From a virus: a stretch of 37,835 nt of DNA. This document shows, piece by piece, positions 1 to 33,006 of the stretch (its first letter is position 1; each line of letters begins with the position of its first letter). Position numbers and translations under genes: made by a program. A model generated the notes under the pieces. It was not told the origin of the DNA and made no database searches. It saw only the letters and a program-made list of their open reading frames with translations. Location of the stretch: the IMG/VR virus record IMGVR_UViG_3300025529_000020, positions 1 through 37,835 of that record. The stretch is one strand, 5' to 3'.

Positions 1-127
1 GAGTCCCGATGTTGCCGGACGCGGTCTCGTGAACCACCCATCCCAGCCCCGCAGTCGGGAAATGCGCGACCCAGCGCACCTCGTTGATCCCGTGTCCCGC
101 TGCCTGCAGTCCCGGTGCCCACATGTA
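1..127. repeat. Terminal direct repeat: exact duplicate of 37709-37835 (circular-closure overlap)
   Basis: First 127 nt of the window are identical to the last 127 nt; the match ends at 128. Confidence 0.9.
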
Positions 128-385
128 GAACCGTGCCCACCAGGGACCGGACGAGGGCAGCGGTACGATCAGCCGCGGAGTGATACCGCGGTGGTGGCCC
201 GAGTCGATGCGTATCGTGTTCAGGTCGTGGACAGTGCGGGCGTCGTCATATACCGCTCGGCCGCCCACCGGTGGGTTCGCACTCTCAATGGTGACCTGAA
301 GGCGGGTAGAAGAGGTGGCAGCCAGGGATGCGTTGGTGGGGACCTCCTCAAGCGGCCCATACAAGCGGTTCTGGACCAACACCAT
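1..385 (-). CDS. 5' (N-terminal) part of junction-spanning tail protein gene; ATG at 385-383, continues into 37708-35982 (1-127 is the duplicated overlap)
   Basis: Manual translation of the minus strand from ATG at 385 is open through 122 (MVLVQNRLYGPLEEV...WWARFYM) and in frame with ORF 35982..37832; AAGGGGG Shine-Dalgarno upstream of the ATG. Confidence 0.6.
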   Translation of the reverse strand, partial: MVLVQNRLYGPLEEVPTNASLAATSSTRLQVTIESANPPVGGRAVYDDARTVHDLNTIRIDSGHHRGITPRLIVPLPSSGPWWARFYMWAPGLQAAGHGINEVRWVAHFPTAGLGWVVHETASGNIGT

Positions 386-400
386 AGGTCCCCCTTCCCA

Positions 401-742
401 CTACGGATTATCGGCGTAAATGTGCAGCGTCGTCACCTCGAGCGTTCCCGGACTGGAGAACGTCTCCGGACTCTCCAAGGTAAGATAGCCAAGAAACGTG
501 GTCCCATCCCACAGTCCCACGTAGTGCACCGTGGTGTCCCCGGGAACATTGAACGTGACCGGGCTGGATGTCTCTACGATGCCACCACTCGCGGAGCCCC
601 ACGTGATGCTCTGCCTCGTGTACCCACCACCGCTCACCTCGTTGGTGCCAGTCGACCCCGGGTTACCGGTGTGCAGGCTCGCAGTGCCAGCGTGCGTTAC
701 TGCGCCGTCAAGCGCGTAGTCGAAAAACTCGTCGGTAAACAT
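401..742 (-). CDS. Minor tail protein (113 aa), function unknown
   Basis: ORF in late operon between distal tail protein and tail fibre-like gene; start overlaps upstream stop (TGATG). Confidence 0.5.
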   Translation of the reverse strand: MFTDEFFDYALDGAVTHAGTASLHTGNPGSTGTNEVSGGGYTRQSITWGSASGGIVETSSPVTFNVPGDTTVHYVGLWDGTTFLGYLTLESPETFSSPGTLEVTTLHIYADNP

Positions 743-12620: not shown

Positions 12621-13199
12621 TCAGCCCTCCTGAGCCAGCATTTCCCGGTACTCGGCCAACACCGCAACATTGTCCGGAGATGCTTCCGGACCAGAGTTCG
12701 CGGCAGCGGCAGCAGCGCTCGCACCACCATCCGACACACTCCCAACGCGACCCCGAAGGCGCTCCATGTGGGTACCGCCCAATGCACGCTCCGCGCGGAA
12801 CACGATCTCAAAAATCCGAGCTTTCCGCATCGCGTCCTTTTCCCGATGCATGGCATCCACCAGCGGCAGCAGGCTCTTCAGCACCTCCCAGTCAGAAGGT
12901 TCGAAGTGCGCCACCTGAGCGGAGTGGCACCACGCGGTCCACCACTCCCGGGTCGCGGACAGCCAGCGCTTGGGATTGGGCAGTTCGGGAATTTCTCTCG
13001 CGGAAGTCCCCAGCGGAGCGCCACGAACAGAGTCCGCGGTAGGCTGGGAACTGTCCGGAGCACCGCACGAGGGGCACGCACGGCCGTCCGCATCCCGCAG
13101 AGAACCACAACTCACACACTGTCTACGCCGGACCCCAGTGAAGGGATCCGGGTTGCGTCGTCTACGATTAGGGTTAGGAGGTGGTCCCATACCAGCCAT
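12621..13199 (-). CDS. Putative terminase small subunit (with CxxC...CxxC zinc ribbon)
   Basis: Position between HNH and terminase large subunit; ATG with GGGAGGGA RBS; Arg-rich N-terminus. Confidence 0.5.
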   Translation of the reverse strand: MAGMGPPPNPNRRRRNPDPFTGVRRRQCVSCGSLRDADGRACPSCGAPDSSQPTADSVRGAPLGTSAREIPELPNPKRWLSATREWWTAWCHSAQVAHFEPSDWEVLKSLLPLVDAMHREKDAMRKARIFEIVFRAERALGGTHMERLRGRVGSVSDGGASAAAAAANSGPEASPDNVAVLAEYREMLAQEG

Positions 13200-13382: not shown

Positions 13383-13700
13383 CTAGGTCACTTTTTTGTA
13401 ACACCAAAATGGGTGTTGCTCTGCCTCACGAACGCGGCGACGACGTGTCCTCGCTGCTGCTGCAGCACCTTCACGTGAGCTCTTCTTCGCGTGGTGGTAG
13501 CGACACAGTGCCTGCAGGTTGTTCAGCGAGTGGTCATCGCCTGCAATGATGTGGTCTACTTCTGTCGCTACCTCAGTACACCGCGTACCAGTATCGACCC
13601 TGATCCACTCGCAGCGATACCCAGCGCGCTCAAGAACGGTAACGCGAATGCGTCTCCAGTTTCGCGGCAGACGGTCGCCGCGGTTGCTTGTACTCCACAT
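13383..13700 (-). CDS. HNH endonuclease (terminase-associated)
   Basis: CxxC ... EVDHII ... NLQALCRYHH motifs; ATG at 13700 with GGAGGGG RBS (ORF-track start at 13712 is an upstream GTG). Confidence 0.8.
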   Translation of the reverse strand: MWSTSNRGDRLPRNWRRIRVTVLERAGYRCEWIRVDTGTRCTEVATEVDHIIAGDDHSLNNLQALCRYHHAKKSSREGAAAAARTRRRRVREAEQHPFWCYKKVT

Positions 13701-13723
13701 ACACCCCTCCACATGAATGGAGG

Positions 13724-13800
13724 GCTGGGGGATCTTATATGGGGGATCCCTTTCCTACGCGGGGATCCCTATAGGGGGATCCATATCGGGGATGGCGTTT
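13724..13800. repeat. Four to five direct GGGGATC(C) repeats interleaved with CCTACGCGG, in the leader of the HNH/terminase operon
   Basis: GGGGATC at about 13727, 13742, 13761, 13777 and 13788; CCTACGCGG at 13754 and 13802. Confidence 0.6.
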
Positions 13801-13917: not shown

Positions 13918-14018
13918 GGGTGACGAGTGACGAGTTTTTTCGTAGTTTTAGATTGTTCTATATGTATGTATATAGAGCAATATAAAACTAATGTTTAAAT
14001 CGTCATTCGTCATCACTC
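13918..14018. repeat. AT-rich island A, bounded by inverted repeats GTGACGAGTGACGAG / TCGTCATTCGTCATCAC
   Basis: About 65 bp of AT-rich DNA with nested palindrome CTATAT...ATATAG in an otherwise GC-rich genome, flanked by imperfect 15-bp inverted arms. Confidence 0.6.
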
Positions 14019-14030
14019 ACCCCATCTCCT

Positions 14031-15635
14031 CTACTCCGCGTAGACCGCTCCCTCACTCTCCGCGCTCTCCCCAGCGTCTGCCCATTCGATCCGCAGTCGG
14101 TGCGGACCAACGGTGCGTGGCTGTCCGAGTCTTACCGGGTAGATGATGACCCTGTTGATCGCGAGGTGGAGTAGGTCCCGCACCAGCGCTCGCTGTCCGC
14201 GTTCCACTGCGTCCCGCATCGCATCTGCCAGCGTTTCCGGATCGTCCACGAACCCCAAGTCCAACGTTGCTTGTGACCGCGCGATAGCGGCCTGCAGCTC
14301 TCGGAGTTCCGCGGACAGTGACCGCATCTCCGAGACGAACAGCTCCGGAGCGTCCTCGTAGGCTCCTGCCCTGAACGCGTCGTGGAGTCTTTGACGTACG
14401 GTCTCGATTTCTTGGATCCGTGCGCGCTTCGCCGCGATTTCTTCGGACTCGCTTGGTTGTTGTCGAGCTGTCCACCGCTCAGCGATGATCAGTGCGAGCA
14501 TGTCCGTGGGTTCAAGCGCGGTTATTCGGTTGAGCCACTCGGCGATCACGAGCTGCTCTGCGCGTTCTCTGGTGATCCGCGCTGGTGCGGGACATGTGGC
14601 TATCGCGGACGTGACGGATGCGCACACCTGTTGCACACCGGATGCTGGTGCGGAGCGTCCGCATGTGCCACACACCGCGATCCCGGTCAGGATGTGTTTT
14701 CTGTGTCTCGCAGTGGGGCGTACGATGCGGCGACGTGTAGAAAACGTGGTGATGTTCTTTGTGAGCCTTTCGAGGAGCTGCTCTCGCTCGTCCGGCGTGA
14801 GCACACCTTCCCCGATGCTGACGAGTCGACCTTCCTCGTCACGGTAAGGTTCTACCAGGTGGGATTTGCCGTTGTTTGCGCGGCCCGCTACCTGCAGCCC
14901 TGCGATTGCGGGGTTGGTGATCAGGCTGATGTAGGTCGTGACGTACCAGATGCCTCCACTGGGGCCGCGGATGCCGAGTTCGTTCTGTTCAGCAACCACG
15001 CTACGCGCTGAGCGTCCGCCGAGAATCTGTTCCGCTCCCCAACGCAGGACCTGGGCACGCGTTCGACCGTCTTCGGTCGGTGTGGTGTAGTCGGGACGTA
15101 CCTTCCGTGTTTTCGGATCTAAGAGGAGTCCCCACGGCACGCTTCCCCCGATCCATTCTCCGTCTCGGCGTTGCCGGGCCTTGCTGATGTGGATTCTGTG
15201 GGATAGGTCAACGCTGTACTGTCGAGCACGCTCCGCCTCATCGATGATGTGGCGACGGTCATGCTCGTCCAGCGTGTCGTAGCGGTCCCAGTAGAAGATG
15301 ACCCGGTGCTTGCCCAGCATGGGGAGTACGTCTTCTGCGCCTCGACGAGTAAGGCGGTCCAGCCTGAAAACCCACAGTGCCTCGACTTCTCCGCGTTGTA
15401 GTGCGGCAAGTGCCTTTCGGAACACCGGCCGTTCCCGGTCCGCGTATGCGGAGCCTAATTCTCGCCACACGTGCCGTACTTGGCTGCCTACCTGTGCTGC
15501 CCAGTGCCGGCCGATTTCCTCCTGTTCCCGGATGGAGACTTCGCGTAGGCGGTCGCCTTCGGAGAGAACCCGGGATTTCCTCACGTACAGGTCCACCGTT
15601 TTTGGTGGTGGGAGTAGTTGGGAGTGGGGGAACAC
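14031..15635 (-). CDS. Large serine recombinase (phage integrase)
   Basis: N-terminal resolvase-type catalytic motif VDLYVRKSRVLSEG...RLDRLTRR, central recombinase domain, Cys-rich zinc ribbon (CGTCGR...C...C) and coiled-coil C-terminus; GTG at 15635 with GGAGG RBS. Confidence 0.8.
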   Translation of the reverse strand: MFPHSQLLPPPKTVDLYVRKSRVLSEGDRLREVSIREQEEIGRHWAAQVGSQVRHVWRELGSAYADRERPVFRKALAALQRGEVEALWVFRLDRLTRRGAEDVLPMLGKHRVIFYWDRYDTLDEHDRRHIIDEAERARQYSVDLSHRIHISKARQRRDGEWIGGSVPWGLLLDPKTRKVRPDYTTPTEDGRTRAQVLRWGAEQILGGRSARSVVAEQNELGIRGPSGGIWYVTTYISLITNPAIAGLQVAGRANNGKSHLVEPYRDEEGRLVSIGEGVLTPDEREQLLERLTKNITTFSTRRRIVRPTARHRKHILTGIAVCGTCGRSAPASGVQQVCASVTSAIATCPAPARITRERAEQLVIAEWLNRITALEPTDMLALIIAERWTARQQPSESEEIAAKRARIQEIETVRQRLHDAFRAGAYEDAPELFVSEMRSLSAELRELQAAIARSQATLDLGFVDDPETLADAMRDAVERGQRALVRDLLHLAINRVIIYPVRLGQPRTVGPHRLRIEWADAGESAESEGAVYAE

Positions 15636-15668
15636 GAACGCCTCCAAGTGTGTGCTGATGTGCGTAGG

Positions 15669-15674
15669 AGTATA
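15669..15674 (-). promoter_or_regulatory. -10-like hexamer TATACT upstream of integrase start
   Basis: TATACT about 27 nt upstream of the GGAGG RBS, downstream of a terminator. Confidence 0.35.
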
Positions 15675-15705
15675 GCGACCTTGTGGAGTGTTCGTGTTTG
15701 GGCAT

Positions 15706-15744
15706 GAAAAAAGACCCGTTCGCCGTTGGTTGGTGAACGGGTCT
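15706..15744 (-). terminator. Intrinsic terminator (GACCCGTTC...GAACGGGTC stem followed by TTTTTT)
   Basis: 9-bp GC-rich stem and U6 tract on the minus strand; lies inside the over-extended ORF-track integrase ORF. Confidence 0.7.
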
Positions 15745-15762
15745 TGGTCCGCTGATTGGTGC

Positions 15763-15853
15763 GGGACCATCCCCACATGCGTGGGGAGCAGGTTTTGAGG
15801 TCCGTCTAGAGTAAATCCAGGCCGGGACCATCCCCACATGCGTGGGGAGCAGG
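15763..15853. repeat. Two 30-bp direct repeats GGGACCATCCCCACATGCGTGGGGAGCAGG (15763-15792 and 15824-15853), each with an internal hairpin
   Basis: Exact 30-bp duplication with 61-bp period; each copy contains palindrome CCCCAC-ATGC-GTGGGG. Confidence 0.8.
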
Positions 15854-15922
15854 ATGTTTGGATCCTGATACCCGCAGTTGCGGGAGCACGTGCCCTACTG
15901 TACTGGAGTGTGGGGGCGTTGT

Positions 15923-16537
15923 CTACTCGGAGTCGTCTTCCTGGAGCTCTTCCCGGAGCTCATCCCGGTAGCTCGTCAGGCGTTCCAGGATGTCTTCGTA
16001 GGCCTCGTCTGGCAGCACACCGCTGGGAACGCCCTTCTCGAGGTCTACCACGGTCCTACGTGCCAGCTCTTCCAGCTGTTCATCGGTGGTGTCGGTGTCC
16101 ACCTCGTCCCGAACGTAGGGGAACCAGTCGTCCTCGTCGAGGGGGAAGACTTCGTCTTCCGGGAACCACCGGCCGGGGTCTTCCACCAGCTCCGAGATCT
16201 TTTCCTGAGCGCGGAAACCTTCAGGCAGGAGGTAAGCGCGCCAGTCGTTACCATCCCATTCCTCGTCCCAGTGGTCCAGCATGGTTTCCACCAGCGGCTT
16301 GATCTTCTCCATGGTGGCGTTGGCCACGTCCGCGGTGAGCGGGGGGATCCGGAAACGGCGGACGTATCCGGCCCAAACCGACTTGGGGATAGCTCCCCCG
16401 ATTTCCGGGTCGTAGGTGGCGGAGATGGTGCCCCTCTCAAGGTCTACCTCGATGTAGCAGGGCTGTGGCTGGTGGCCCTGGATGTGGCAGTAGAGCTCAC
16501 CGGGGGTTTCCACCTTGATGATGGTTGCCTTCGCCAT
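15923..16537 (-). CDS. Highly acidic hypothetical protein (204 aa)
   Basis: ORF with Asp/Glu-rich C-terminal two-thirds (DEEWDGNDW, EDEVFPLDEDDWFPYVRDEVDTDTTDEQLEE); first gene of the minus-strand early region, divergent from the Xis-like gene. Confidence 0.5.
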   Translation of the reverse strand: MAKATIIKVETPGELYCHIQGHQPQPCYIEVDLERGTISATYDPEIGGAIPKSVWAGYVRRFRIPPLTADVANATMEKIKPLVETMLDHWDEEWDGNDWRAYLLPEGFRAQEKISELVEDPGRWFPEDEVFPLDEDDWFPYVRDEVDTDTTDEQLEELARRTVVDLEKGVPSGVLPDEAYEDILERLTSYRDELREELQEDDSE

Positions 16538-16643
16538 GGTGGTGCTCCTTTCTAGTTGGTACCGCAGTAGTGGTTGATGCGGTTTCTGTCGACCTGATGC
16601 CTACAGCATACCCGGTTGTCGCTTTGTTGTCTACACTGGTGCC

Positions 16644-16844
16644 ATGATTTCTCGATCCGATGACGAGTACGTGGACATGCAGGAGCTGGCACAGATGCTG
16701 GGGGTTCAGTACGCCACCATCCGCCAGCAGCGGTATCGAGGTCGTCTCCCAAAGCCGGACCGGGTGTTCGGGCGTTCCCCGGTGTGGCGGATGGGGACGC
16801 TCAGGCAGTGGGCACGTGAGGCTGGGAAAACCTTGGACGAGTAG
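16644..16844 (+). CDS. Helix-turn-helix DNA-binding protein, excisionase/AlpA-like (66 aa)
   Basis: Plus-strand ORF with HTH-like segment ELAQMLGVQYATIRQQRYRGRLP; followed by a canonical terminator. Confidence 0.6.
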   Translation: MISRSDDEYVDMQELAQMLGVQYATIRQQRYRGRLPKPDRVFGRSPVWRMGTLRQWAREAGKTLDE

Positions 16845-16855
16845 GAGGGATCAAG

Positions 16856-16890
16856 GGCCCCGGGTGTAGTGTCCGGGGCCTTCTTTTTTG
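16856..16890 (+). terminator. Intrinsic terminator after the Xis-like gene
   Basis: GGCCCCGGG-tgtagtgt-CCGGGGCC hairpin followed by TTCTTTTTTG. Confidence 0.75.
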
Positions 16891-17078
16891 TGGGCATGTG
16901 CGGTGTATGCGCTGTTCAGCGTCGGTGTGCGCATGTGTATGTAGTATGAGCATGCTGTGAACACATGCGTGTGCCGGTGGGGCCGTGTTTGTCGTGGAGG
17001 AAATGCGTCGCGGACGTGGTAGAGTGGATGCGGTCATTGTCTCCTGAGTGTGTGCGTGGATGAGTGGACTATGACCAG

Positions 17079-17108
17079 CCCCGGGGTTGGTGCCCCGGGG
17101 TTCTTTTA
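17079..17108 (+). terminator. Plus-strand terminator-like hairpin with no annotated upstream gene
   Basis: CCCCGGGG-ttggtg-CCCCGGGG followed by TTCTTTTAT; no T-tract in the minus orientation. Confidence 0.5.
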
Positions 17109-17323
17109 TGTCCAGACACACAGAGAGCCCCGGTACTGGGTAGCACCGGGGCTCGTGCGGTATGTGGTTATGGTGCTAGACGGTGGTCGGTGTCGACACG
17201 GTCACTCGGCCTCGGTGACCGGGTAGCCGACATGCCCGAGTCTCCGTTCTGAGTTGTGGTTGTGGTTGGGTGGTGCGGCCGCTGGGGCCGCACCGGTTCT
17301 ACTCGACTAGCGGAAACCGCTGG

Positions 17324-18034
17324 CTAGGCGACCTGTTCCCGGCCGGTGCCACCGCACTCACCGCACGCGATCGGCGGGGTGGCATCGTCCACCGGGAGTT
17401 CCCCATATCCGCCGCACGGGCGGCAGGACGGGGGGTTGGCCTGCACGTCCGCCTTGTAGGCGGACTCCAGCCCCTTCAGGGCCGAGAGCGCGGCCCGGGT
17501 CTCCGCCCGGAGCCGAGCGGAGATGAACTGCATCTGTTCCAGGACGGTGAGCTTCCGCACCCCATCCCGGAACGCGTTCACGCTGCCTCGGCGAACCTCG
17601 GCGGCGGCCTCCAACAGCTCCGAGGCTCCCCGACGATCCCGGTCTTCGGTGATCGCCGTTTCTGCGACTCGGATGAACATATCAGCGGCCGTGGTGCGCG
17701 GGGAGGCTGCCATTACCCGCGCGAGGGCGCGGGCCCGCACAGGCTTCCCGTTGACCCGCTCCACGTTAGTGGGGACGACCAGGTCAGTCCGGTGACTGGC
17801 GCGCTCCGCCACGGGGCGAGCGACCACATAAACCACACCGGGCTGAGGGGAGGGGAGAACGTCGTCCGCGTCTCCCAACGCCTCCCGGACCACGGGGATT
17901 CCGTTGATCTCCCCGTCCGGGTAGGTCTCGGCGGGGAGCCGAACCGGGGTCGCCTCCGGCTGGATTACCACCTCGTCCCCGTTCGCGGTGACGAGCGTGA
18001 CGGGGTGCGGGGTGAGGTTGACGATTCTGGTCAT
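17324..18034 (-). CDS. Hypothetical protein with C-terminal DnaJ-type CxxCxGxG zinc-finger pair
   Basis: ATG at 18034 with GGAGG RBS; C-terminus CRPCGGYG...CGECGGTG. Confidence 0.5.
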   Translation of the reverse strand: MTRIVNLTPHPVTLVTANGDEVVIQPEATPVRLPAETYPDGEINGIPVVREALGDADDVLPSPQPGVVYVVARPVAERASHRTDLVVPTNVERVNGKPVRARALARVMAASPRTTAADMFIRVAETAITEDRDRRGASELLEAAAEVRRGSVNAFRDGVRKLTVLEQMQFISARLRAETRAALSALKGLESAYKADVQANPPSCRPCGGYGELPVDDATPPIACGECGGTGREQVA

Positions 18035-18065
18035 TGGAACCTCCAGGGGTTTCGTTGTGGTTTCC

Positions 18066-18095
18066 ACATTAGCATGATTGAGCAGTGCTGAGCAA
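18066..18095 (-). promoter_or_regulatory. Sigma-70-like promoter (TTGCTC - 18 nt - TAATGT) for gene 17324..18034
   Basis: Hexamers with 18-nt spacer read on the minus strand; spacer AGCACTGCTCAA resembles the two other promoters. Confidence 0.45.
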
Positions 18096-18149
18096 GTGTT
18101 GTGAGGGAAGTGCCGGAGAATTTGTTCCCCGGCACTTCCTCAAGTGCCG

Positions 18150-18461
18150 CTAGAACAGCTTGGCGGCTTTCTCCATCTCCGCCCACATCTGAGCGGCGTA
18201 GTCTTCGTCGCGCATGGCGTCCGCGCAGATGTTGATGACGTGGCTACGCCACACTTCCGCACGCTCCTTAGCGGTAGCGTCCCCGGACTCCTCAGCAGCC
18301 AGCATGTCCTGAGTGAGGGTGGTAATCAGCTGCTGCAGCAGGGTACGGGTGGCAGCAGCGGGGTTCTCCGGGGCTGCGGTCAGTCCCAGCGCGGCAGTGG
18401 GAGAAACGCGGAGCAGGGCGATGATGACACCAGCGGCGAAGGCGGGGAGGAAGACGGGCAT
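18150..18461 (-). CDS. Small membrane protein (about 104 aa)
   Basis: ATG at 18461 with AAAGGAGA RBS; N-terminal hydrophobic helix MPVFLPAFAAGVIIALLRV. Confidence 0.5.
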   Translation of the reverse strand: MPVFLPAFAAGVIIALLRVSPTAALGLTAAPENPAAATRTLLQQLITTLTQDMLAAEESGDATAKERAEVWRSHVINICADAMRDEDYAAQMWAEMEKAAKLF

Positions 18462-18495
18462 TTGTTTATCTCCTTTCTGTCTGACTGACACTTCT

Positions 18496-18524
18496 ACTAT
18501 ACCCCATTGCTCAGTACTGCGCAA
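18496..18524 (-). promoter_or_regulatory. Sigma-70-like promoter (TTGCGC - 17 nt - TATAGT)
   Basis: Minus-strand TTGCGC AGTACTGAGCAATGGGG TATAGT immediately after a terminator and upstream of the RBS/ATG at 18461. Confidence 0.6.
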
Positions 18525-18531
18525 GCCATTG

Positions 18532-18562
18532 GAGAAAAATCCCCGGGGCTCTCCCCGGGGCA
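18532..18562 (-). terminator. Intrinsic terminator (CCCCGGGG-agag-CCCCGGGG followed by ATTTTTCTCC)
   Basis: GC hairpin and T-tract on the minus strand after the stop of gene 18566..18796. Confidence 0.65.
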
Positions 18563-18565
18563 GTG

Positions 18566-18796
18566 TCAGTCAAGACATGGCTTCTCTGTGTCCATGCGGT
18601 CGTTCAGCCAGTGCAGCAGGCTGTTGATGTGGGGTCGTGGGTCTACGTGCGTTAGGGGGCCGAGTGCAGCCTCTACCCGTTCACGCTCGATAGCGACGCT
18701 GGTAGTGCCTCGTTGGTAACGCCGCAGATAACCCGGTGGATCCTCAACCCACAGTTCCCCGTCATCGTCCCGCCACAGTGTGGGCTCGTCTGACAT
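18566..18796 (-). CDS. Hypothetical protein (76 aa)
   Basis: ORF in early region, followed by terminator. Confidence 0.4.
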   Translation of the reverse strand: MSDEPTLWRDDDGELWVEDPPGYLRRYQRGTTSVAIERERVEAALGPLTHVDPRPHINSLLHWLNDRMDTEKPCLD

Positions 18797-18928
18797 GTGT
18801 TCTCCCTACCGTGTAGACATAGCCAGTTGGAGCAAAGAGGAGGGACTCTCCGGTGGAGTACCAGAGAGTCCCGGGATCAGGTTTATGCGCGGTGTGCAGA
18901 GCCGCTGGGCGTTAGCGGCCCGTAGTGG

Positions 18929-19213
18929 TTACGGAACGACCTCCCAAGAACGGCCCTTCCAAACGACGTTGTAGCCTTCCCCAAGGTGCTTTTCCACCAG
19001 TCGCGCCGCCACGTCCGGTTCAATGAGGCGCGCAGTCCGCATCGGTTCACACATCGTGGTGTACCGCGCGTAGGTGGTCACGGAGTCTACGGGCTCTTCA
19101 CCGCGGTACAGGGTGAGGATGGTGCGGTCCGGGTGTTCTTCGCGGCGAACCTCCCACAACTTCCATTCCCATTTGTACATGTCTTCTCCTTCGTCCACAG
19201 TTCCGTGAGTCAT
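18929..19213 (-). CDS. Hypothetical protein (94 aa)
   Basis: ORF in early region. Confidence 0.4.
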   Translation of the reverse strand: MTHGTVDEGEDMYKWEWKLWEVRREEHPDRTILTLYRGEEPVDSVTTYARYTTMCEPMRTARLIEPDVAARLVEKHLGEGYNVVWKGRSWEVVP

Positions 19214-19310
19214 TCACGCTACTGCGTGGCGACTCGCTTCGCGGTACACCTCCACAGTACACCACTCGCGCTCATCGAGCAACCGGTAACGCGCGCTCCA
19301 ATTCGTAGAC

Positions 19311-19514
19311 CTACAGCGGGATGCGCAACCGCCCACGTGCCACGGTGGTGCGGTGGCGTGTTTCCATTGCGTCCCGCAGTTCCCGGAACGCTACGCGAGT
19401 GTGGTGGGTCGTTGATACAACGTCGTTTTCTTCGTTGTAGAGAACGACCTCGTATCCGTCGCGGTGTGAGTACACCACTGCCTTGTAGCCACGTGGGAGT
19501 GCGTACGCCTCCAT
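19311..19514 (-). CDS. Hypothetical protein (67 aa)
   Basis: ATG at 19514 with GGGAG RBS, directly downstream of motif site 2. Confidence 0.45.
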   Translation of the reverse strand: MEAYALPRGYKAVVYSHRDGYEVVLYNEENDVVSTTHHTRVAFRELRDAMETRHRTTVARGRLRIPL

Positions 19515-19539
19515 AGAAGTCTCCCTTCGTGTGTGCGTA

Positions 19540-19580
19540 CCTATTGGGGTTACAGGTCCTGGTCTCCGGTAGCGCGCGGG
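19540..19580 (-). promoter_or_regulatory. Conserved motif site 2 (GTTACAGGTCC ... GCGCGC)
   Basis: GTTACAGGTCC at 19549-19559 and GCGCGC at 19572-19577, between sigma gene stop and next gene start. Confidence 0.5.
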
Positions 19581-19602
19581 AGAACCGGGAATTTGTGGGT
19601 GT

Positions 19603-20556
19603 TTACGCGGCTGCCAGCTCGACTACTACCCGCCTCAGCTTTCTCAGCGCAGCGGCCTTGAGGGAACGTACACGTCCGGGATCGATTCCCATGATGTGCG
19701 CGGTCTCGGCGACACTGAGTTCCGGACCGCCCAGTCCGGTCAGGTGTACCAGTGCCTCACGCTCCCGGGGGGACACGTGATCGAGCAGACGATGCACGAG
19801 GTCCCGAGTTTCCACACTGGCTAGTGCAGCGGCCGAGCGGTGGCACTCCGCCGTGTCCCCGATGGTCTGCGTGGCGCTCTCGTCACACAGTTCCGACACC
19901 GGGGTATCCACGGACACATAATGTAGGGCTTCGTGGATGGCATCGAACTGTGCGTAGGACAGACCACGTGCGGTTTTGTCGTCTAGCTGCTGTGCCACAT
20001 CTAGCCCTTCCCGCTCCCAGCGTTCAATACGGCGGTCCAGGATGGCGGCAGCCATGTCATCTCCGGAGTCCGCCATGTCCTGCAGTTCTCGGCCGGTCAA
20101 CCCCTCACGGTGGGCCCATTCGCGTGCGAGTACCGGGTCGTGTCCACACGCTTCCATGGCTCTCCAGTAGCGGTGCTGTGCGGACGAGGAGATGCGGAAC
20201 GGGGAGCTGGCTACAGCGGCCTCCCTCACAGCGTTCTGGATGTGGCGATACGCCACGGTCATAGGTTCTGCAGAACCATCCGGGTCGTAGTCTCGCAGAA
20301 CCTCCACCAGCGCCATTAGCGCGGCCTGGTAGAGGTCCGCGTACTCCGCACTACGCTGGTAGTTTCTGACCAGGTGGTGGATCTGGTCTTCGTAACGTGC
20401 GGCAAGGATGACAAGCCCTTCGTCTCCGTACGCGGGGAGCTGACGGTTGGGGACGTGATCAAGGCCCAGACGTTCTTCGTAGGCACGTGCGGCGGTGCGG
20501 ACTGTGGCACGGACGATGTGTGCGGGGGATCTGGTGGCGATCAGTTCATCCAACAT
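19603..20556 (-). CDS. Phage-encoded sigma-70 family RNA polymerase sigma factor
   Basis: Region 2-like segment DLYQAALMALVEVLRDYDP and region 4-like HTH LSVAETAHIMGIDPGRVRSLKAAALRKLRR. Confidence 0.75.
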   Translation of the reverse strand: MLDELIATRSPAHIVRATVRTAARAYEERLGLDHVPNRQLPAYGDEGLVILAARYEDQIHHLVRNYQRSAEYADLYQAALMALVEVLRDYDPDGSAEPMTVAYRHIQNAVREAAVASSPFRISSSAQHRYWRAMEACGHDPVLAREWAHREGLTGRELQDMADSGDDMAAAILDRRIERWEREGLDVAQQLDDKTARGLSYAQFDAIHEALHYVSVDTPVSELCDESATQTIGDTAECHRSAAALASVETRDLVHRLLDHVSPREREALVHLTGLGGPELSVAETAHIMGIDPGRVRSLKAAALRKLRRVVVELAAA

Positions 20557-20633
20557 GGCGACTCCGTGAGTTGATTCACGGGCCCTGGACTACGCCACGT
20601 CCAGGGCCCACATTGTGGCGGTGGGGGTAGCGG

Positions 20634-20948
20634 TTAGGCAGTGGGGTCATCCCAAGAGTGGATGACCTGAGTTAGGCGGTTGGTGGCCTGCTGCAAGACG
20701 GTGATCGCGTGGCGCACGTCCGGATCCCGGGTGATGCGACGCAGCTCGTCTGCCACACGTTGTCTACGTGGGCAGAGAACCGCCTCCTCTACCGGACGAG
20801 GGACTCCATCAGTGGCCATAGTGCCGCTCCTTGGGGATAGCGGGCTACGCAACACAGACAGTTCGTCTGCCAGTGCCACCGCGCGGGAGAACGCGAGTGG
20901 TGTGGCGACCATGTGCGGGAGTGATTGACGTGGTTTCATAGTACACAC
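20634..20948 (-). CDS. Hypothetical protein (104 aa or shorter)
   Basis: ORF between endonuclease VII-like gene and sigma factor gene; start uncertain. Confidence 0.4.
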   Translation of the reverse strand: MCTMKPRQSLPHMVATPLAFSRAVALADELSVLRSPLSPRSGTMATDGVPRPVEEAVLCPRRQRVADELRRITRDPDVRHAITVLQQATNRLTQVIHSWDDPTA

Positions 20949-20967
20949 TCCGTTTCCGTTTTACCAG

Positions 20968-21456
20968 CTAGTCCGTTTGTGGTCCGTCCGTTACTGTGGG
21001 GGATGGTGTGTTTGTGTCCGCAGAGAGCTGACGTAGGTATTGCGCGGCTCTCTCGAGACGTTCGGGATGGTCCCCCATGAGGCCGAGTGCGGCGTTGCAG
21101 GTGTGGCAGAGCAGCCCACGCACCCGGTGAGTCCGGTGGCAGTGGTCGACCACTAGCCTGCTCCCCGGGGGGTACGGGGGACGTGCACAGATCGCGCACC
21201 GCCACCGTTGTGCCCTAGCCATAGCGGTGTAGTCGGCACTCGTGATCCCGTATCTACGCCGCAGTTTGCGGTCACGTTCGACAGTGCGCTGTTTCCGGGT
21301 TCTGCGCTTGCGGTACGCAGACTCGCAGTCGCGGCAGCGCGTGCCACGGCGGTTCCCTCGAGTGCGGGGGAACCTTCCCAGTGGGAGCGTCTGTCCGCAC
21401 GTGCGACAGTCCCGCACATAGGGGTTCACGCCGTGTATTTCCGGTCGTCCGGACAT
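20968..21456 (-). CDS. Endonuclease VII-family (HNH-like) nuclease, probable Holliday junction resolvase
   Basis: Cys clusters CRTCG...CRDC and VVDHCH...GLLCHTCN motif. Confidence 0.65.
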   Translation of the reverse strand: MSGRPEIHGVNPYVRDCRTCGQTLPLGRFPRTRGNRRGTRCRDCESAYRKRRTRKQRTVERDRKLRRRYGITSADYTAMARAQRWRCAICARPPYPPGSRLVVDHCHRTHRVRGLLCHTCNAALGLMGDHPERLERAAQYLRQLSADTNTPSPTVTDGPQTD

Positions 21457-23306
21457 CCGTACCCATCTCCCCAGCTAGTGCCGTAGATTTCGGGTTCGGA
21501 TTCGATCTGAACCCCGAAAAACGGCATCCGCATCCTCTCCCCCACTGCGTTGATCACGTCCTGAGCCTCGTGGCGTGGGGCTTCAACCAGGATTTCGTCA
21601 TGGACCACACCGATGACATAGGGCAGTAGTCCATCAGCGTCCAGATCCACTAGCGCTTGCCCTAGGACATCGCGCGCGGTGGATTGGCACAGGTAGGCGA
21701 TCGCCGTGTACGTTTTGTCGCGGTCCAGGCGCAGCAGCCGACCGGACGGGGTACGCACGGTCATCCCTTGCTGCTGTGCCATACGGGTGAGGTAGCGGGA
21801 GAACCGTGCGATTTCCGGCAACGCGCGGTCGTACTTGGTCACCGCTGCCTGAACCTGCCGCAGTGGGAGTCCAGTTTGCCGCGCCAACGTACGCGCTCCA
21901 CCGGCGTAGGCCTTCCCCAACGAGATCGTCTTGCACAATGACCGCTGATCTTTGGGGACTGGCTCGTTCTCAGGGATGTTGAACACCAGCCTTGTGGTGT
22001 AGGAGTGCAGGTCCTGTCCTTGGTTGATCGCCTCGATGAGGCGTTCGGCTCCTGCCAGCGCTACGAGCACTCGCAGTTCTACCTGAGCTAGGTCACTTGC
22101 GGCGATGAGGTGTCCGGGCTCTGCCACGACACAGCGACGCACTCGCCAGTCCGATGACGGTAGCTGCTGCAGTGGCGGGTTGGACATCGACCACCGGCCG
22201 GTGCGAGCACCTAGCGTGTTGATGTCGGGGTGAATCCTGCCACTGGGGTCTACAAGCTGCAGCATGGCGTGACCGTAGCTGGCAGCCCATTTCTGCGCAC
22301 GCTTCGCGCGGAGAACAGCATCGGCAAGCGGGTTGGGTTCACGGGCTCCCACTCTCCGCCACTGTGTGTCCAGGTCCGCCATAGGCAGAAGCACTTCTTT
22401 ACCCACCGCCAACTGTCCCGTGGCGGTTGTCTCAGTCAGCGTTTCCCCCATGGCCTGCAGTGCAGCAGCCACTTGGGCAGTAGCGTGCACAGACGTCACC
22501 CCGTACCGCCTAGCCACCGCAGTGTAATGGGCAGCCTCGTTTTCCAGCTCATCCACCAGCGACTTTGTGTAGTTGAGGTCCAGCCGCATCCCCTTACGGC
22601 GGATAATGGTCCCAATACGGGCAATGCGGTGTTCGTACTCCGCCAATGTTGCCGGGATGGCAGCGTCCTCACACGCGCGAAGCAGGTGAGGCAGCAGCCG
22701 AGTTACCAACACCACGTCCGCACCTGCATACGTGAGGAACGCCGGAGTATCCAGCGGGAGTTGAGCCCAACCACTCTCCCGGGTGAGCCCATGCTCACGA
22801 AACACTGCAGCCAGTTCCCGCTGACCATCAGTAGCATGCGGATCCACATAGTGCGCTGCCAGGTTTTTGAGGGCATGCCCAGTGCCGCCCTCATACTCCC
22901 GACGAGGGTCATACAAGTGCGCGTAAATGCGGGTATCCCGGATACGCGGCCACAGTTCCTCTACCGGAATGCCCAGGTGGCGGTCTATGACCAGCGTGTC
23001 ATAGGACGCATTGTGGATGACCAGCTTCGGCAGCGTGCGGAGCGCGTATCGAGCAGCGTGAGCGAACACCTCCCCGTACTCAACTGGCAACAGCCACGCC
23101 TCTTCCGGAGTGCCGAACTGGATCAGACGTAGCCGGTGCGAGTGTAGGAACACGTTCAAGCCGGTGGTCTCGGTGTCGACTCCCACCGGTGTACCACGTT
23201 GGGTCATGCGGTCAACCCAGTCGCGAAACACGTGGATGTCATCAGGATGGTCGACCACATACTGTGTCCACCTGATGTTCCCCATACGTTCGTGTGTGAT
23301 GCGCAT
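21426..23306 (-). CDS. DNA polymerase I (family A) with 3'-5' exonuclease domain
   Basis: Exo motif VGVDTETTGL, polymerase motifs DLAQVELRVLVALAG, KTISLGKAYAGG, VHDEILVE; ATG at 23306 with AGGAGAGG RBS (ORF-track start lies inside the primase gene). Confidence 0.85.
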   Translation of the reverse strand: MRITHERMGNIRWTQYVVDHPDDIHVFRDWVDRMTQRGTPVGVDTETTGLNVFLHSHRLRLIQFGTPEEAWLLPVEYGEVFAHAARYALRTLPKLVIHNASYDTLVIDRHLGIPVEELWPRIRDTRIYAHLYDPRREYEGGTGHALKNLAAHYVDPHATDGQRELAAVFREHGLTRESGWAQLPLDTPAFLTYAGADVVLVTRLLPHLLRACEDAAIPATLAEYEHRIARIGTIIRRKGMRLDLNYTKSLVDELENEAAHYTAVARRYGVTSVHATAQVAAALQAMGETLTETTATGQLAVGKEVLLPMADLDTQWRRVGAREPNPLADAVLRAKRAQKWAASYGHAMLQLVDPSGRIHPDINTLGARTGRWSMSNPPLQQLPSSDWRVRRCVVAEPGHLIAASDLAQVELRVLVALAGAERLIEAINQGQDLHSYTTRLVFNIPENEPVPKDQRSLCKTISLGKAYAGGARTLARQTGLPLRQVQAAVTKYDRALPEIARFSRYLTRMAQQQGMTVRTPSGRLLRLDRDKTYTAIAYLCQSTARDVLGQALVDLDADGLLPYVIGVVHDEILVEAPRHEAQDVINAVGERMRMPFFGVQIESEPEIYGTSWGDGYGCPDDRKYTA

Positions 23307-26470: not shown

Positions 26471-26512
26471 TAGAAAAGGGGAACCCCGGGATAGTTCCCG
26501 GGGCCGATCGGC
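26471..26512 (-). terminator. Conserved terminator-RBS cassette H1 (CCCCGGGA..TCCCGGGG hairpin + CCCCUUUUCU + GUGGAGG)
   Basis: GC hairpin followed by T-tract on the minus strand, then an SD-like sequence; shares about 40 nt with H2 and the hairpin with H3. Confidence 0.6.
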
Positions 26513-31561: not shown

Positions 31562-32401
31562 TTACGCCGGAACTGTCGTGGCCAGTTTCCGTCGCGCGTC
31601 GCGTAGCACGTTCCTTCCCCAGCGGTCCGTGCGTCCGTAGCGGGTCCCGATTTCCGCTCCGGTGAGCGTGGTTCCGTTCCGGAGCTGTTCCGCGACCCAT
31701 TCGACAGCGGAACGGCGTTCCGCGCTGTGCGGGGGTACCACGGACACCGGAACGGTCGTAGGGGCTCCCTCCTCCACTACCGGAACGCGGACATTCCGTT
31801 CCTCGTCCCGCTGTTGTTCCTCGTTCCGCTCTTCGTTCCGCGCTGTTCCGCTCTTCGTTCCGCTGCTGTTCCGTTCCTCGTTCCGTTCCTCGTCCCCCGG
31901 TTGTTCCGTGTTCCGTTCCTCGTCCCGTTCCCCATTCCGCTGTTGTTCCTCGTCCCGTTCCTCGTTCCGCTCTTCGTTCCGTTCCTCGTTCCGCTGCTGT
32001 TCCGCCCTGTTCCGTCTACCTGCAGCAAGGGCCACCGACGCAACGACCACTAGTCCATCTACAGACAGTGGCAGCAGGATGGCCACAAGCTCCGACTCCC
32101 CGTACTGGAGCAGGAGCCCGCGCATGTGACCGTAGGAGACCACGGCCGCGGCCAGCGCTACGAGGAAAGCTCCCACCCACTCAACTGCGGACAGCAGTCC
32201 ACGCGGACGCTGTCCACGAACCATCATCTCTGCGACCAACAGCAGCGCTACCGGTGCCCATGCCGCAAACAGCATGGCACCGATGTCTGTTCCGTCCGCG
32301 TTCCGTTCCGCGGCGTGTGCCACGTTCGCGGCGATGCTGGCTCCTGCGCCGAGTAGGAACGCTGTCCAGGGGATGGCGTTTGATCTCGGTTTTCCGCTCA
32401 C
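31562..32401 (-). CDS. Membrane protein with central EERN tandem-repeat low-complexity region (start uncertain)
   Basis: Three or more hydrophobic helices, then (EERN)n repeats, then Arg-rich C-terminus; first possible start after the upstream gene stop is GTG at 32401. Confidence 0.45.
   Translation of the reverse strand: MSGKPRSNAIPWTAFLLGAGASIAANVAHAAERNADGTDIGAMLFAAWAPVALLLVAEMMVRGQRPRGLLSAVEWVGAFLVALAAAVVSYGHMRGLLLQYGESELVAILLPLSVDGLVVVASVALAAGRRNRAEQQRNEERNEERNEERDEEQQRNGERDEERNTEQPGDEERNEERNSSGTKSGTARNEERNEEQQRDEERNVRVPVVEEGAPTTVPVSVVPPHSAERRSAVEWVAEQLRNGTTLTGAEIGTRYGRTDRWGRNVLRDARRKLATTVPA
31790..32015. repeat. Imperfect tandem array of GTTCC(G/T)-containing units (about 12-bp period) encoding EERN repeats
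   Basis: Plus strand reads TTCCGTTCCTCGTTCCGCT... repeatedly; translates as EERNEERNEERDEE on the minus strand. Confidence 0.8.
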
Positions 32402-32514
32402 TCGTGGGTTCTCCGTTCCGTTCCGCTGTTTCCGTTCCGGGGCTTCCGTTCCGCCAGCGGTCCGGGAATTCCGTTCCGCTGGCGTTCCTCTACTTCCGTT
32501 CCGCTGGTGTTCCT
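32402..32514. repeat. Iteron-like array: five direct copies of TTCCGTTCCGC(T/C)(G/A)G (minus-strand CCAGCGGAACGGAA) in intergenic DNA
   Basis: Copies at about 32414, 32431, 32445, 32470 and 32494 between the stop of gene 32515..32937 and the start of the membrane protein gene. Confidence 0.7.
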
Positions 32515-32937
32515 CTACTCCCGCTCCGCCACTCGGTGACCGTGTTCCGTGGCCTCCACGTAAACCGCTCCAGCCTTCCGAAACGCCCTCAGCATCCCCC
32601 GCTCCAAGAGCGCAGTGATATGGCGTGCGGTTACTCCTGCAGCGCGGCACGCACTCGGCGACATGTGCAGCGCTCCGTTCTTGATGATGGTGCGCAGTGC
32701 GTTCCGCTGCTTCGCCGAGAGTGTGCGCGCGTTGAGCCGTCGTCCGCGACGCACTGCTTCCGCGGCCTGTTCGGGGGTTGTATACCGGAACGATAGATAA
32801 CCCACCCCCAACAGGTAGGCCCTCCACGGCCGAGCGGGGTTGTCGCCACGCCAAGAGACCAGGCCGATGATCTCGGGGCCGTTCTCACTGAGAACCACGC
32901 GCTCTGGGCGGGACGGGCGGTTGTTCTGTGTGGTCAT
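32515..32937 (-). CDS. Hypothetical protein (140 aa), possibly DNA-binding
   Basis: ATG at 32937 with GGAGG RBS downstream of terminator H3; Arg/Lys-rich. Confidence 0.45.
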   Translation of the reverse strand: MTTQNNRPSRPERVVLSENGPEIIGLVSWRGDNPARPWRAYLLGVGYLSFRYTTPEQAAEAVRRGRRLNARTLSAKQRNALRTIIKNGALHMSPSACRAAGVTARHITALLERGMLRAFRKAGAVYVEATEHGHRVAERE

Positions 32938-32967: not shown

Positions 32968-33006
32968 TGAAAAAGCCCCGGGATTTCCCCGGGGCCGATC
33001 GGCCGG
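32968..33006 (-). terminator. Conserved terminator H3 (GCCCCGGGA..TCCCCGGGGC hairpin + CUUUUUCAU) with adjacent GGCCGATCGGCC palindrome
   Basis: Same hairpin core and CCGATCGG element as H1. Confidence 0.6.

Follow-up and report, generated by a model that had tools for sequence, protein, structure and literature searches.

Short transcripts that end at a terminator within an immunity region are familiar from phages of proteobacterial hosts, where lambda OOP, P22 sar, P1 c4, the P4 CI RNA and the N15 CA RNA are either antisense to nearby target transcripts or have repeated complementary sites with them. For the locus described here, the nearest precedents are the intergenic non-coding RNAs of the cluster A mycobacteriophages L5, D29 and StarStuff, which were seen by RNA-seq and Northern blot with promoter Pleft and whose function is unknown (PMC5712189). 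We investigated a gap at positions 16845-17323 of IMG/VR virus record IMGVR_UViG_3300025529_000020, whose 37,835 nucleotides were analyzed over their whole length and are referred to below as the window. This gap is a genuine non-coding spacer between two converging gene blocks in an uncultured temperate actinophage that is distantly related to Thermobifida phages. Our preferred reading, which we hold tentatively, is that it contains a plus-strand non-coding RNA unit ending at an intrinsic terminator, T2, within a terminator-rich module boundary.

A non-coding spacer between converging genes

With the single exception of a 66-amino acid (66-aa) helix-turn-helix (HTH) gene, all sizeable genes of the phage lie on the minus strand. 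The HTH gene is divergent from a block encoding DUF8280 and a serine integrase, and it converges on the end of a long leftward gene series. An initial annotation of the window saw no credible gene between these blocks, and our analysis agrees: 16845-17323 is covered by short or overlapping mechanical open reading frames (ORFs) alone, and the ORFs of both strands gave no Pfam or PHROGs match even at E ≤ 1. These missing family matches, together with frameshifting indels and the loss of a start codon in relatives, give the region the lack of coding potential expected of a small RNA gene. Comparisons were made across nine distinct haplotypes of the segment from the HTH gene to hairpin D (Table 1), which are 89-100% identical to the window; related contigs are denoted by L numbers.

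A 14-codon micro-ORF (MRRGRGRVDAVIVS; 17003-17047, plus strand), running from ATG 17003 to TGA 17047 behind the Shine-Dalgarno-like GTGGAGGAA, had also been put forward as a possible leader peptide. The sequence is present, with a Shine-Dalgarno-like GGAGGA 3 nt ahead of the ATG, but neither start codon nor frame is conserved among relatives, and we rejected it as a gene. At least three haplotype groups have lost the start codon: L003, L008, L009 and L011 read CTG in place of the ATG, L005 reads ACG and has a 6-nt deletion besides, and L016 lacks it altogether. In L006 and L015, one nucleotide is inserted ahead of the stop codon. Relatives with at least 89% identity differ by five frameshifting or length-changing indels (+22, +20, -6, +1 and -1 nt), and different frames are therefore open in different phages. 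Given also the lack of family matches, a translated micro-ORF, leader peptide or other small protein between terminators T1 and T2 is about the least probable explanation of the gap that we considered.

The first hairpin of the gap, T1, is the terminator of the HTH gene (-20.8 kcal/mol, z = -4.0; here and below, z-scores of folding energy are relative to dinucleotide shuffles). In T1, 44% of columns vary and the changes include one C-G to T-A double change, yet the hairpin of every haplotype still folds at -18 to -28 kcal/mol. Kept everywhere despite this variation, T1 shows clear structural selection. T2 lies 195 nt past T1, with the end of the HTH gene 233 nt upstream. The initial annotation had described it as an orphan plus-strand terminator hairpin, and as a terminator it is real: 8 of its 11 stem pairs are G-C, the loop is 4 nt and CTTTTAT follows up to 17109, so that T2 has the stem, loop and U-tract of a Rho-independent terminator. 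It folds at -23.2 kcal/mol (z = -3.4), and there is no T-run on the minus strand. It is not fully an orphan, since the terminator of the sole plus-strand gene stands only this short distance upstream. T2 is also well conserved, with 2 of 32 columns varying in the nine haplotypes; both are in basal pairs that remain paired on the plus strand (A-U and G-U changing to G-U and A-U). Hairpin D, on the opposite strand, varies at 2 of 30 columns. Measured against the third codon positions of the HTH gene (15 of 66 vary, 23%), this conservation corresponds to p of about 0.05 for T2 and about 0.08 for D.

Throughout the 37.8 kb, T1 and T2 are the only strong (at least 10 pairs) plus-strand terminator-like sites. 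The seven other strong sites (18872, 18560, 26505, 27036, 30794, 32996 and 33427) are all on the minus strand, and at least five of them sit in gaps between minus-strand ORFs. As the strands of the strong sites match the strands of the genes, terminator orientation follows transcription in this phage, implying that T2 serves to stop plus-strand transcription. By simple count there is no excess of terminator-like motifs at 15500-18500 (4, compared with 2.2 ± 1.6 in shuffles); individually, however, the hairpins greatly exceed shuffles in strength. Both the HTH gene and the non-coding cassette are present in the nine haplotypes and both are absent from L019 and L040, indicating that they travel as one module. 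L019 and L040 also have no plus-strand terminator, and T2 thus appears to be tied to plus-strand transcription. In L039, T1 is the same 22-nt hairpin as T2 (17078-17107; CCCCGGGGTTGGTGCCCCGGGG), and T1 is near-identical to it in L016 and L038, which suggests gene conversion between T1 and T2. Related GCCCCGGGG hairpins occur at 18541-18560, 26482-26505 and 32974-32996.

Between the two terminators lies a G/U-rich body of ~190 nt (16891-17076) whose first element is an imperfect inverted repeat of 52 nt. The GCGCATGTG/CACATGCGTG strings that had been picked out as repeated in the gap turned out to be the two arms of this one repeat, with cores at 16928-16939 and 16960-16971. Folded as plus-strand RNA, the repeat reaches -24.7 kcal/mol (z = -2.8), compared with -12.5 kcal/mol (z = -1.3) for the minus strand. 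Three of its pairs vary: 16931/16968 is G-C in one haplotype, A-T in two and G-T in six; 16928/16971 is T-G in eight and C-G in one; and 16929/16970 is G-C in eight and G-T in one. These substitutions always keep plus-strand pairing but mostly break minus-strand pairing and the DNA palindrome, and the basal pairs of T2 behave likewise; the comparison, which has few positions behind it, thus favors a hairpin in plus-strand RNA rather than a symmetric site for protein binding. A run of 36 nt (16932-16967) is invariant in all nine haplotypes, with a rough chance probability, given the variability observed, of about 0.04. Farther along the body, a hypothetical hairpin, H3, has the sole C-rich patch, UCUCCU, which is the complement of a Shine-Dalgarno sequence and of which CUCC (17041-17044) is invariant. 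One H3 pair varies with its pairing kept (U-A to U-G), and the predicted stability does not exceed that of shuffles (z = -0.74).

Table 1. Features of the gap and its surroundings (positions in the window).
Feature	Position	Strand	Description
Small terminase subunit	12621-13199		
HNH endonuclease	13383-13712		
AT-rich imperfect palindrome, 92 bp	13921-14012		Immediately downstream of integrase stop codon (14031); genome 61% GC
Large serine recombinase (integrase)	14031-15839 (ORF)		
DUF8280 protein	15923-16537		
66-aa HTH_17/AlpA/Xis-like DNA-binding gene	16644-16844	+	Upstream neighbor of the gap
T1, intrinsic terminator of HTH gene	16854-16890 (stem 16854-16882 and T-run)	+	13 pairs, then CTTTTTTGTG
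Long imperfect inverted repeat/hairpin	16924-16975	+	15-bp outer stem, 6-bp inner stem, center 16949/16950
TAGTAT	16942-16947	+	Sole -10-like (TANNNT) hexamer of the body; no matching -35; within the hairpin
Predicted hairpin H3 (GGTCATTGTC...GACTATGACC)	17032-17076	+	RNAalifold helix 9; directly ahead of T2
T2, canonical intrinsic terminator	17077-17109 (stem 17077-17102)	+	11-bp stem, GUUG loop, UUCUUUUAU tail
Hairpin D	17125-17154	-	-29.8 kcal/mol, z = -4.4; then CUCUCUGUGUGUCUGG on minus strand
Remnant 3' end of 235-aa minus-strand gene	17176-17214	-	From BLAST and alignment breakpoints
Hairpin F (GGTGCGGCC-5 nt-GGCCGCACC)	17272-17294	-	-20.3 kcal/mol, z = -4.1; no U-tract
Sigma factor	19603-20556		

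A candidate plus-strand RNA and competing explanations

We propose that the region is the junction of a small lysogeny module and the end of a long leftward operon. Its left two-thirds (16891-17109) would most likely be a plus-strand non-coding transcription unit composed of the long inverted-repeat hairpin at the 5' end, a G/U-rich middle with the CUCC hairpin, and terminator T2; its right third (17125-17323) holds a deletion scar and the minus-strand terminators that belong to the converging operon. The predicted RNA of about 150-215 nt could have a promoter of its own or else represent the distal 3' part of the HTH mRNA, produced by read-through or processing, and its likely function would be regulation of the lysis-lysogeny module, for example by pairing of the CUCC patch with a ribosome-binding site. 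We infer that the body is transcribed and that the RNA itself, and not merely its terminator, is functional. A small plus-strand RNA ending near 17108 had been among the suggestions of the initial annotation, and indirect support from the strength of the terminator, the strand logic, the invariance and the plus-strand-pairing substitutions makes it the best remaining reading, one to which we give somewhat less than even credence and for which no promoter was detected. The region would then be a candidate new member of the phage small RNA class, belonging to no defined family.

Several results weigh against this reading. A sigma-70-type promoter scan, which does not cover actinobacterial or phage-sigma promoters, returned nothing on either strand of 16845-17323. 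The only TANNNT hexamer of the body, TAGTAT, is a weak promoter candidate and sits within the hairpin that the RNA should contain; an RNA that includes the hairpin would need a start site very close to T1, or would have to arise when the HTH mRNA is read through or processed. The promoter word GTAGACAAC, shared by the upstream regions of DUF8280 and a neighboring mini-CRISPR array, does not occur in the element. Taken as a whole, the body (16891-17076) folds no better than its shuffles (z = -0.34), and it varies (0.177) to an extent not significantly different from third codon positions in the HTH gene (0.227). The RNAalifold consensus pairs 98% of cells and has 21 extra pair types and few breaks, but no pair has changed on both sides and the shuffle control fails to separate structure from chance; moreover, the plus strand is G+T-rich over 14.5-21.5 kb, which by itself favors G-U-rich folds. 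The relatives are all at least 89% identical in the segment, giving low comparative power. Rfam 15 gave no match at the gathering threshold anywhere in the window (the best sub-threshold match scored 20 bits, compared with 50), and an exact-complementarity search for targets within the phage found chance-level 10-13-mers alone.

Other searches were negative or uninformative. A tRNA/tmRNA scan found none, and an RNAduplex target scan within the phage gave mostly artefactual long-loop duplexes. We tried the body as a decayed duplicate of the HTH gene and rejected this, with DNA and protein alignment scores at shuffle level. The element matched the phage database, in near and distant modes, with chance 24-nt matches alone. 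Metagenome contig scans with the DNA pattern and with the HTH protein had no match, and IMG/VR pattern and protein scans returned two contigs, both already known. Searches with DUF8280 and the HTH protein recovered only relatives at least 77% identical and hence no deep comparative set; no more distant relatives were found in the phage database, IMG/VR, 185,579 species genomes (GTDB) or the metagenome collection.

Nearly as likely as the plus-strand RNA is a pure insulator, in which T1 and T2 act against rightward and F and D against leftward transcription, so that neither the lysogeny module nor the long leftward operon is read into from the other. The ~190-nt body would then be a spacer of no function, for instance what is left of a lost gene, and T2 would be a back-up. 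This arrangement would account for five strong hairpins within 480 bp at a convergent junction, for a body that shows neither excess stability nor conservation past the synonymous-site proxy and that tolerates indels of 1-22 nt, and for the missing promoter; the deletion scar in the right part shows that gene loss has happened there. A decayed gene has left no sign, however, as the body resembles neither a protein family nor the HTH gene. It is also harder to explain on this account why the spacer has been kept in 9 of 9 HTH-bearing haplotypes: T1 and T2 share up to 22 identical nt, and recombination between these flanking repeated hairpins could delete it. The 36-nt invariant run and the plus-strand-pairing substitutions of the inverted repeat speak against a functionless spacer as well, as does the lack of a plus-strand terminator in L019 and L040, which have no plus-strand gene. 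Less probable, and in our view unlikely, is that the inverted repeat is an operator, a 44-52-bp imperfect palindrome (16924-16975) bound by a dimeric phage protein such as the HTH protein or a repressor, which would control a promoter or block transcription. Its central 36 bp are invariant in the nine haplotypes while the flanks vary, its symmetry reaches the center (AG.ATG..CAT.CT), one position has changed in both arms (G-C to A-T) in L003 and L005, and the cassette is strictly linked to the HTH gene. But the palindrome is asymmetric at 16931/16968 in six of nine haplotypes and at 16928/16971 in eight, which suits G-U pairs in RNA better. The half-site is absent from the divergent promoter region and from other promoters, its other copies being the CRISPR repeats and two intragenic sites, and there is no evident promoter for it to control.

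Two further suggestions of the initial annotation, an origin and an attP site, fared poorly. An origin of replication or other cis-acting replication or partition site could draw on short dispersed repeats (GCATGTG three times, CGTGGWWGAGTGGA twice at 40-bp spacing) and on an iteron-like array of 21-24-bp tandem repeats that occupies the same position in L019 and L040. The window itself has no tandem or iteron array in 16845-17323, and thus not the three or more direct repeats and AT-rich stretch that define an iteron origin; its GC content here is 0.59-0.66 with no AT-rich unwinding segment, its two-copy repeats are at chance level, and the replication genes (DNA polymerase A and others) are far away. 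We therefore consider an origin very improbable. We think equally little of 16924-16975 as the attP of the large serine integrase. Serine-integrase attP sites such as those of phiC31 and Bxb1 are roughly 50 bp long with imperfect dyad symmetry, which the inverted repeat matches in size and form, and an integrase is encoded 1.1 kb away; but DUF8280, a mini-CRISPR array, the HTH gene and two terminators intervene, so that the close linkage that is typical, if not absolute, for such sites is missing. No contig breaks at 16950, and at least 15 related contigs run through intact. An integrase-based scan of the 185,579 GTDB genomes found no prophage relative. The more likely site, and the best attP candidate, is the 92-bp palindrome that adjoins the integrase stop codon and whose arms covary between the window and L003 (GTTCTATAT/ATATAGAGC and GACTATACG/CGTATAGTC, respectively).

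Were the plus-strand RNA confirmed, the lysogeny module of this actinophage lineage from thermophilic compost would gain a conserved non-coding regulator; without such an RNA, the locus is an ordinary module boundary rich in terminators. In either case the annotation changes: the micro-ORF is not a gene, attP most likely adjoins the integrase, the gap is in part a deletion scar, and the neighboring 'integrase N-terminus' is a phage-borne type I-E mini-CRISPR array.

Deletion scar, mini-CRISPR array and genomic setting

The further GC hairpins that had been noted in the gap are present, 5-10 nt away from where they had been placed (17125-17154 instead of 17130-17160 for D, and 17272-17294 instead of 17262-17284 for F); both fold most strongly on the minus strand. 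Hairpin D is probably the terminator of the leftward operon, and hairpin F lies 30 nt downstream of the stop codon of a 247-aa gene (17324-18067) and is kept in the Thermobifida fusca phages P318 and P1312 and in L006 and L016. Between them is the remnant of a 235-aa gene that is present in L003, L006, L008, L009, L011, L014 and L038 and was deleted in the lineage of the window. Its stop aligns with 17176-17178, 21 nt upstream of D, and about its last 13 codons survive; homology stops at 17214 and resumes at 17263, and in L006 the sequence of window 17263-17308 recurs upstream of the 235-aa gene. That this gene is present in some relatives and missing in others accounts for the many metagenome contigs with a break at 17157-17300. 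D, F and the gene remnant thus identify the right third of the gap as an operon end and deletion scar. Within the scar (17176-17262), the remnant codons are joined out of frame to a Shine-Dalgarno sequence and ATG (17232-17230, minus strand), giving a 21-codon ORF.

At the position of the cassette, L019 and L040, whose DUF8280 is more divergent, carry six to seven tandem 21-24-bp repeats that look iteron- or centromere-like (L019 1600-1790; L040 about 250-480, reverse strand). The repeat consensus is about CGCTCGCCGAGTGGCTGCGGT and is followed by a hairpin, GCCCCGGGAAAAYCCCGGGGC; this single hairpin is terminator-like for the leftward direction alone. The tandem-repeat motif is not present at the corresponding locus of the window.

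The HTH protein matches Pfam HTH_17 (E = 1e-4) and phrog_597 (E = 1e-13), and a solved-structure search gave a weak AlpA-family match alone (E = 0.27). An identical protein is encoded on 14 metagenome contigs, and further contigs were reached through DUF8280 homologues at least 77% identical in full-length alignment. A TANNNT hexamer, TACACT (16632-16637), ends 6 nt ahead of the HTH ATG (16644) with no Shine-Dalgarno sequence; judged by actinobacterial promoter rules, the proximity of this hexamer to the ATG makes the gene appear leaderless. The lysogeny module as a whole consists of the serine integrase, the DUF8280 gene, the mini-CRISPR array and the rightward HTH gene. An AlphaFold model of DUF8280, made in search of a DNA-binding fold, was too poor for a fold search (mean pLDDT 61.5).

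The mini-CRISPR array is the more striking element of this neighborhood and biologically more interesting than the gap. It lies on the minus strand at 15706-15925, between DUF8280 and the probable true integrase start, GTG 15635, which is indicated by the 534-aa protein called in relatives; the mechanical 602-aa integrase ORF wrongly spans the array. Two perfect 29-nt repeats (CTGCTCCCCACGCATGTGGGGATGGTCCC; 15763-15791 and 15824-15852), 61 bp apart, enclose one 32-nt spacer in a type I-E-like arrangement, with a promoter-like site (TAGACA-17-TACAGT, 15925-15897) and a terminator at about 15743-15706. Genuine type I-E arrays with a 61-bp period (Thermus, Akkermansia, Chloroflexota) have repeats that match the 21-nt core of this repeat exactly, and a copy in Nocardiopsis alba has 26 nt in common with it. 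The array is found in most relatives, in two spacer variants with the first 18 nt in common; L014 has one repeat, and the array is missing from L015, L016 and L017. Neither the phage database nor related loci yielded a protospacer. The array could be an inter-viral-conflict mini-array, Racr, or Cracr/crlRNA (PMC6858448, PMC10651486, bioRxiv 10.1101/2024.10.29.618823). The 10-mer CACATGCGTG occurs in both the CRISPR repeats and the inverted repeat of the gap; we rejected a relationship as coincidental, since the flanks are unrelated and ~20 such matches are expected by chance.

The first and last 127 bp of the window (1-127 and 37709-37835) are an exact terminal overlap. The window is therefore circularly assembled, its true length is 37,708 bp (~37.7 kb), and it represents not an integrated prophage but a phage genome that was free or replicating. 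In the phage database, its sole nucleotide similarity is to P318 and P1312 (88-90% identity), starting at window 17259 and 17263, respectively, and including hairpin F and the 247-aa gene. DNA polymerase A is encoded farther along than the sigma factor. Between the HNH gene and the integrase (13725-13795) are five GGGGATC(C) repeats at 12-20-bp spacing that could be binding sites for terminase or a regulator. The related 30.8-kb contig L003 ends just past the HNH gene, which suggests a physical genome end (cos) nearby. Over ~14500-21500, the GC skew of the plus strand is positive and its AT skew strongly negative, opposite to the skew elsewhere, with genes on the minus strand as in the remaining genome; the lysogeny/early region is thus compositionally distinct. 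Dense degenerate GTTCCG/TTCCGTTCCGC repeats with periods of 12-42 fill 31794-32529, within a 430-aa minus-strand ORF, where AT skew is extreme (-0.545); they represent either a repetitive protein or a cis-acting repeat region.

Comparison with known systems

With the attP sites of phiC31 and Bxb1, the inverted repeat has in common its form of a ~50-bp imperfect palindrome and its occurrence in a phage with a large serine recombinase; it differs in not lying beside the integrase and in having arms that are asymmetric in most haplotypes.

The immunity-region RNAs lambda OOP, P22 sar, P1 c4, P4 CI and N15 CA are likewise short, terminator-ended units beside lysis-lysogeny genes. Here, in contrast, there is no complementary site beyond chance and no overlapping antisense partner, since the plus-strand unit stops at 17109, short of the end of the minus-strand operon at 17125. 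No CI/Cro-type repressor was recognizable near the integrase, where the module proteins are DUF8280 and the 66-aa HTH protein. For this reason we considered the idea, a long shot by our own estimate, that the RNA might be a component of a lysis-lysogeny or immunity switch and functional analogue, in an actinophage, of the P4 CI and P1 c4 RNAs. Such a switch RNA might use its invariant CUCC patch to target the ribosome-binding sites of mRNAs from the phage or its host. We know of no analogue of the P4 CI or P1 c4 RNA in the phylum of actinophage hosts.

The intergenic RNAs of cluster A mycobacteriophages resemble the proposed RNA in that they come from actinobacteriophages and occupy a non-coding stretch of a few hundred bp that has no conserved ORF and tolerates small indels. 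They have no sequence similarity to the element of the window, and they differ in having been detected and in having a defined promoter, whereas the RNA proposed here is a candidate from sequence alone with no promoter found.

Finally, T1, T2 and D resemble generic Rho-independent terminators at module boundaries, with GC-rich stems, short loops, a U-tract in T1 and T2, and an arrangement between converging units. Tandem back-up terminators are normally adjacent; T1 and T2, in contrast, are set apart by a retained 190-nt body with a long hairpin.

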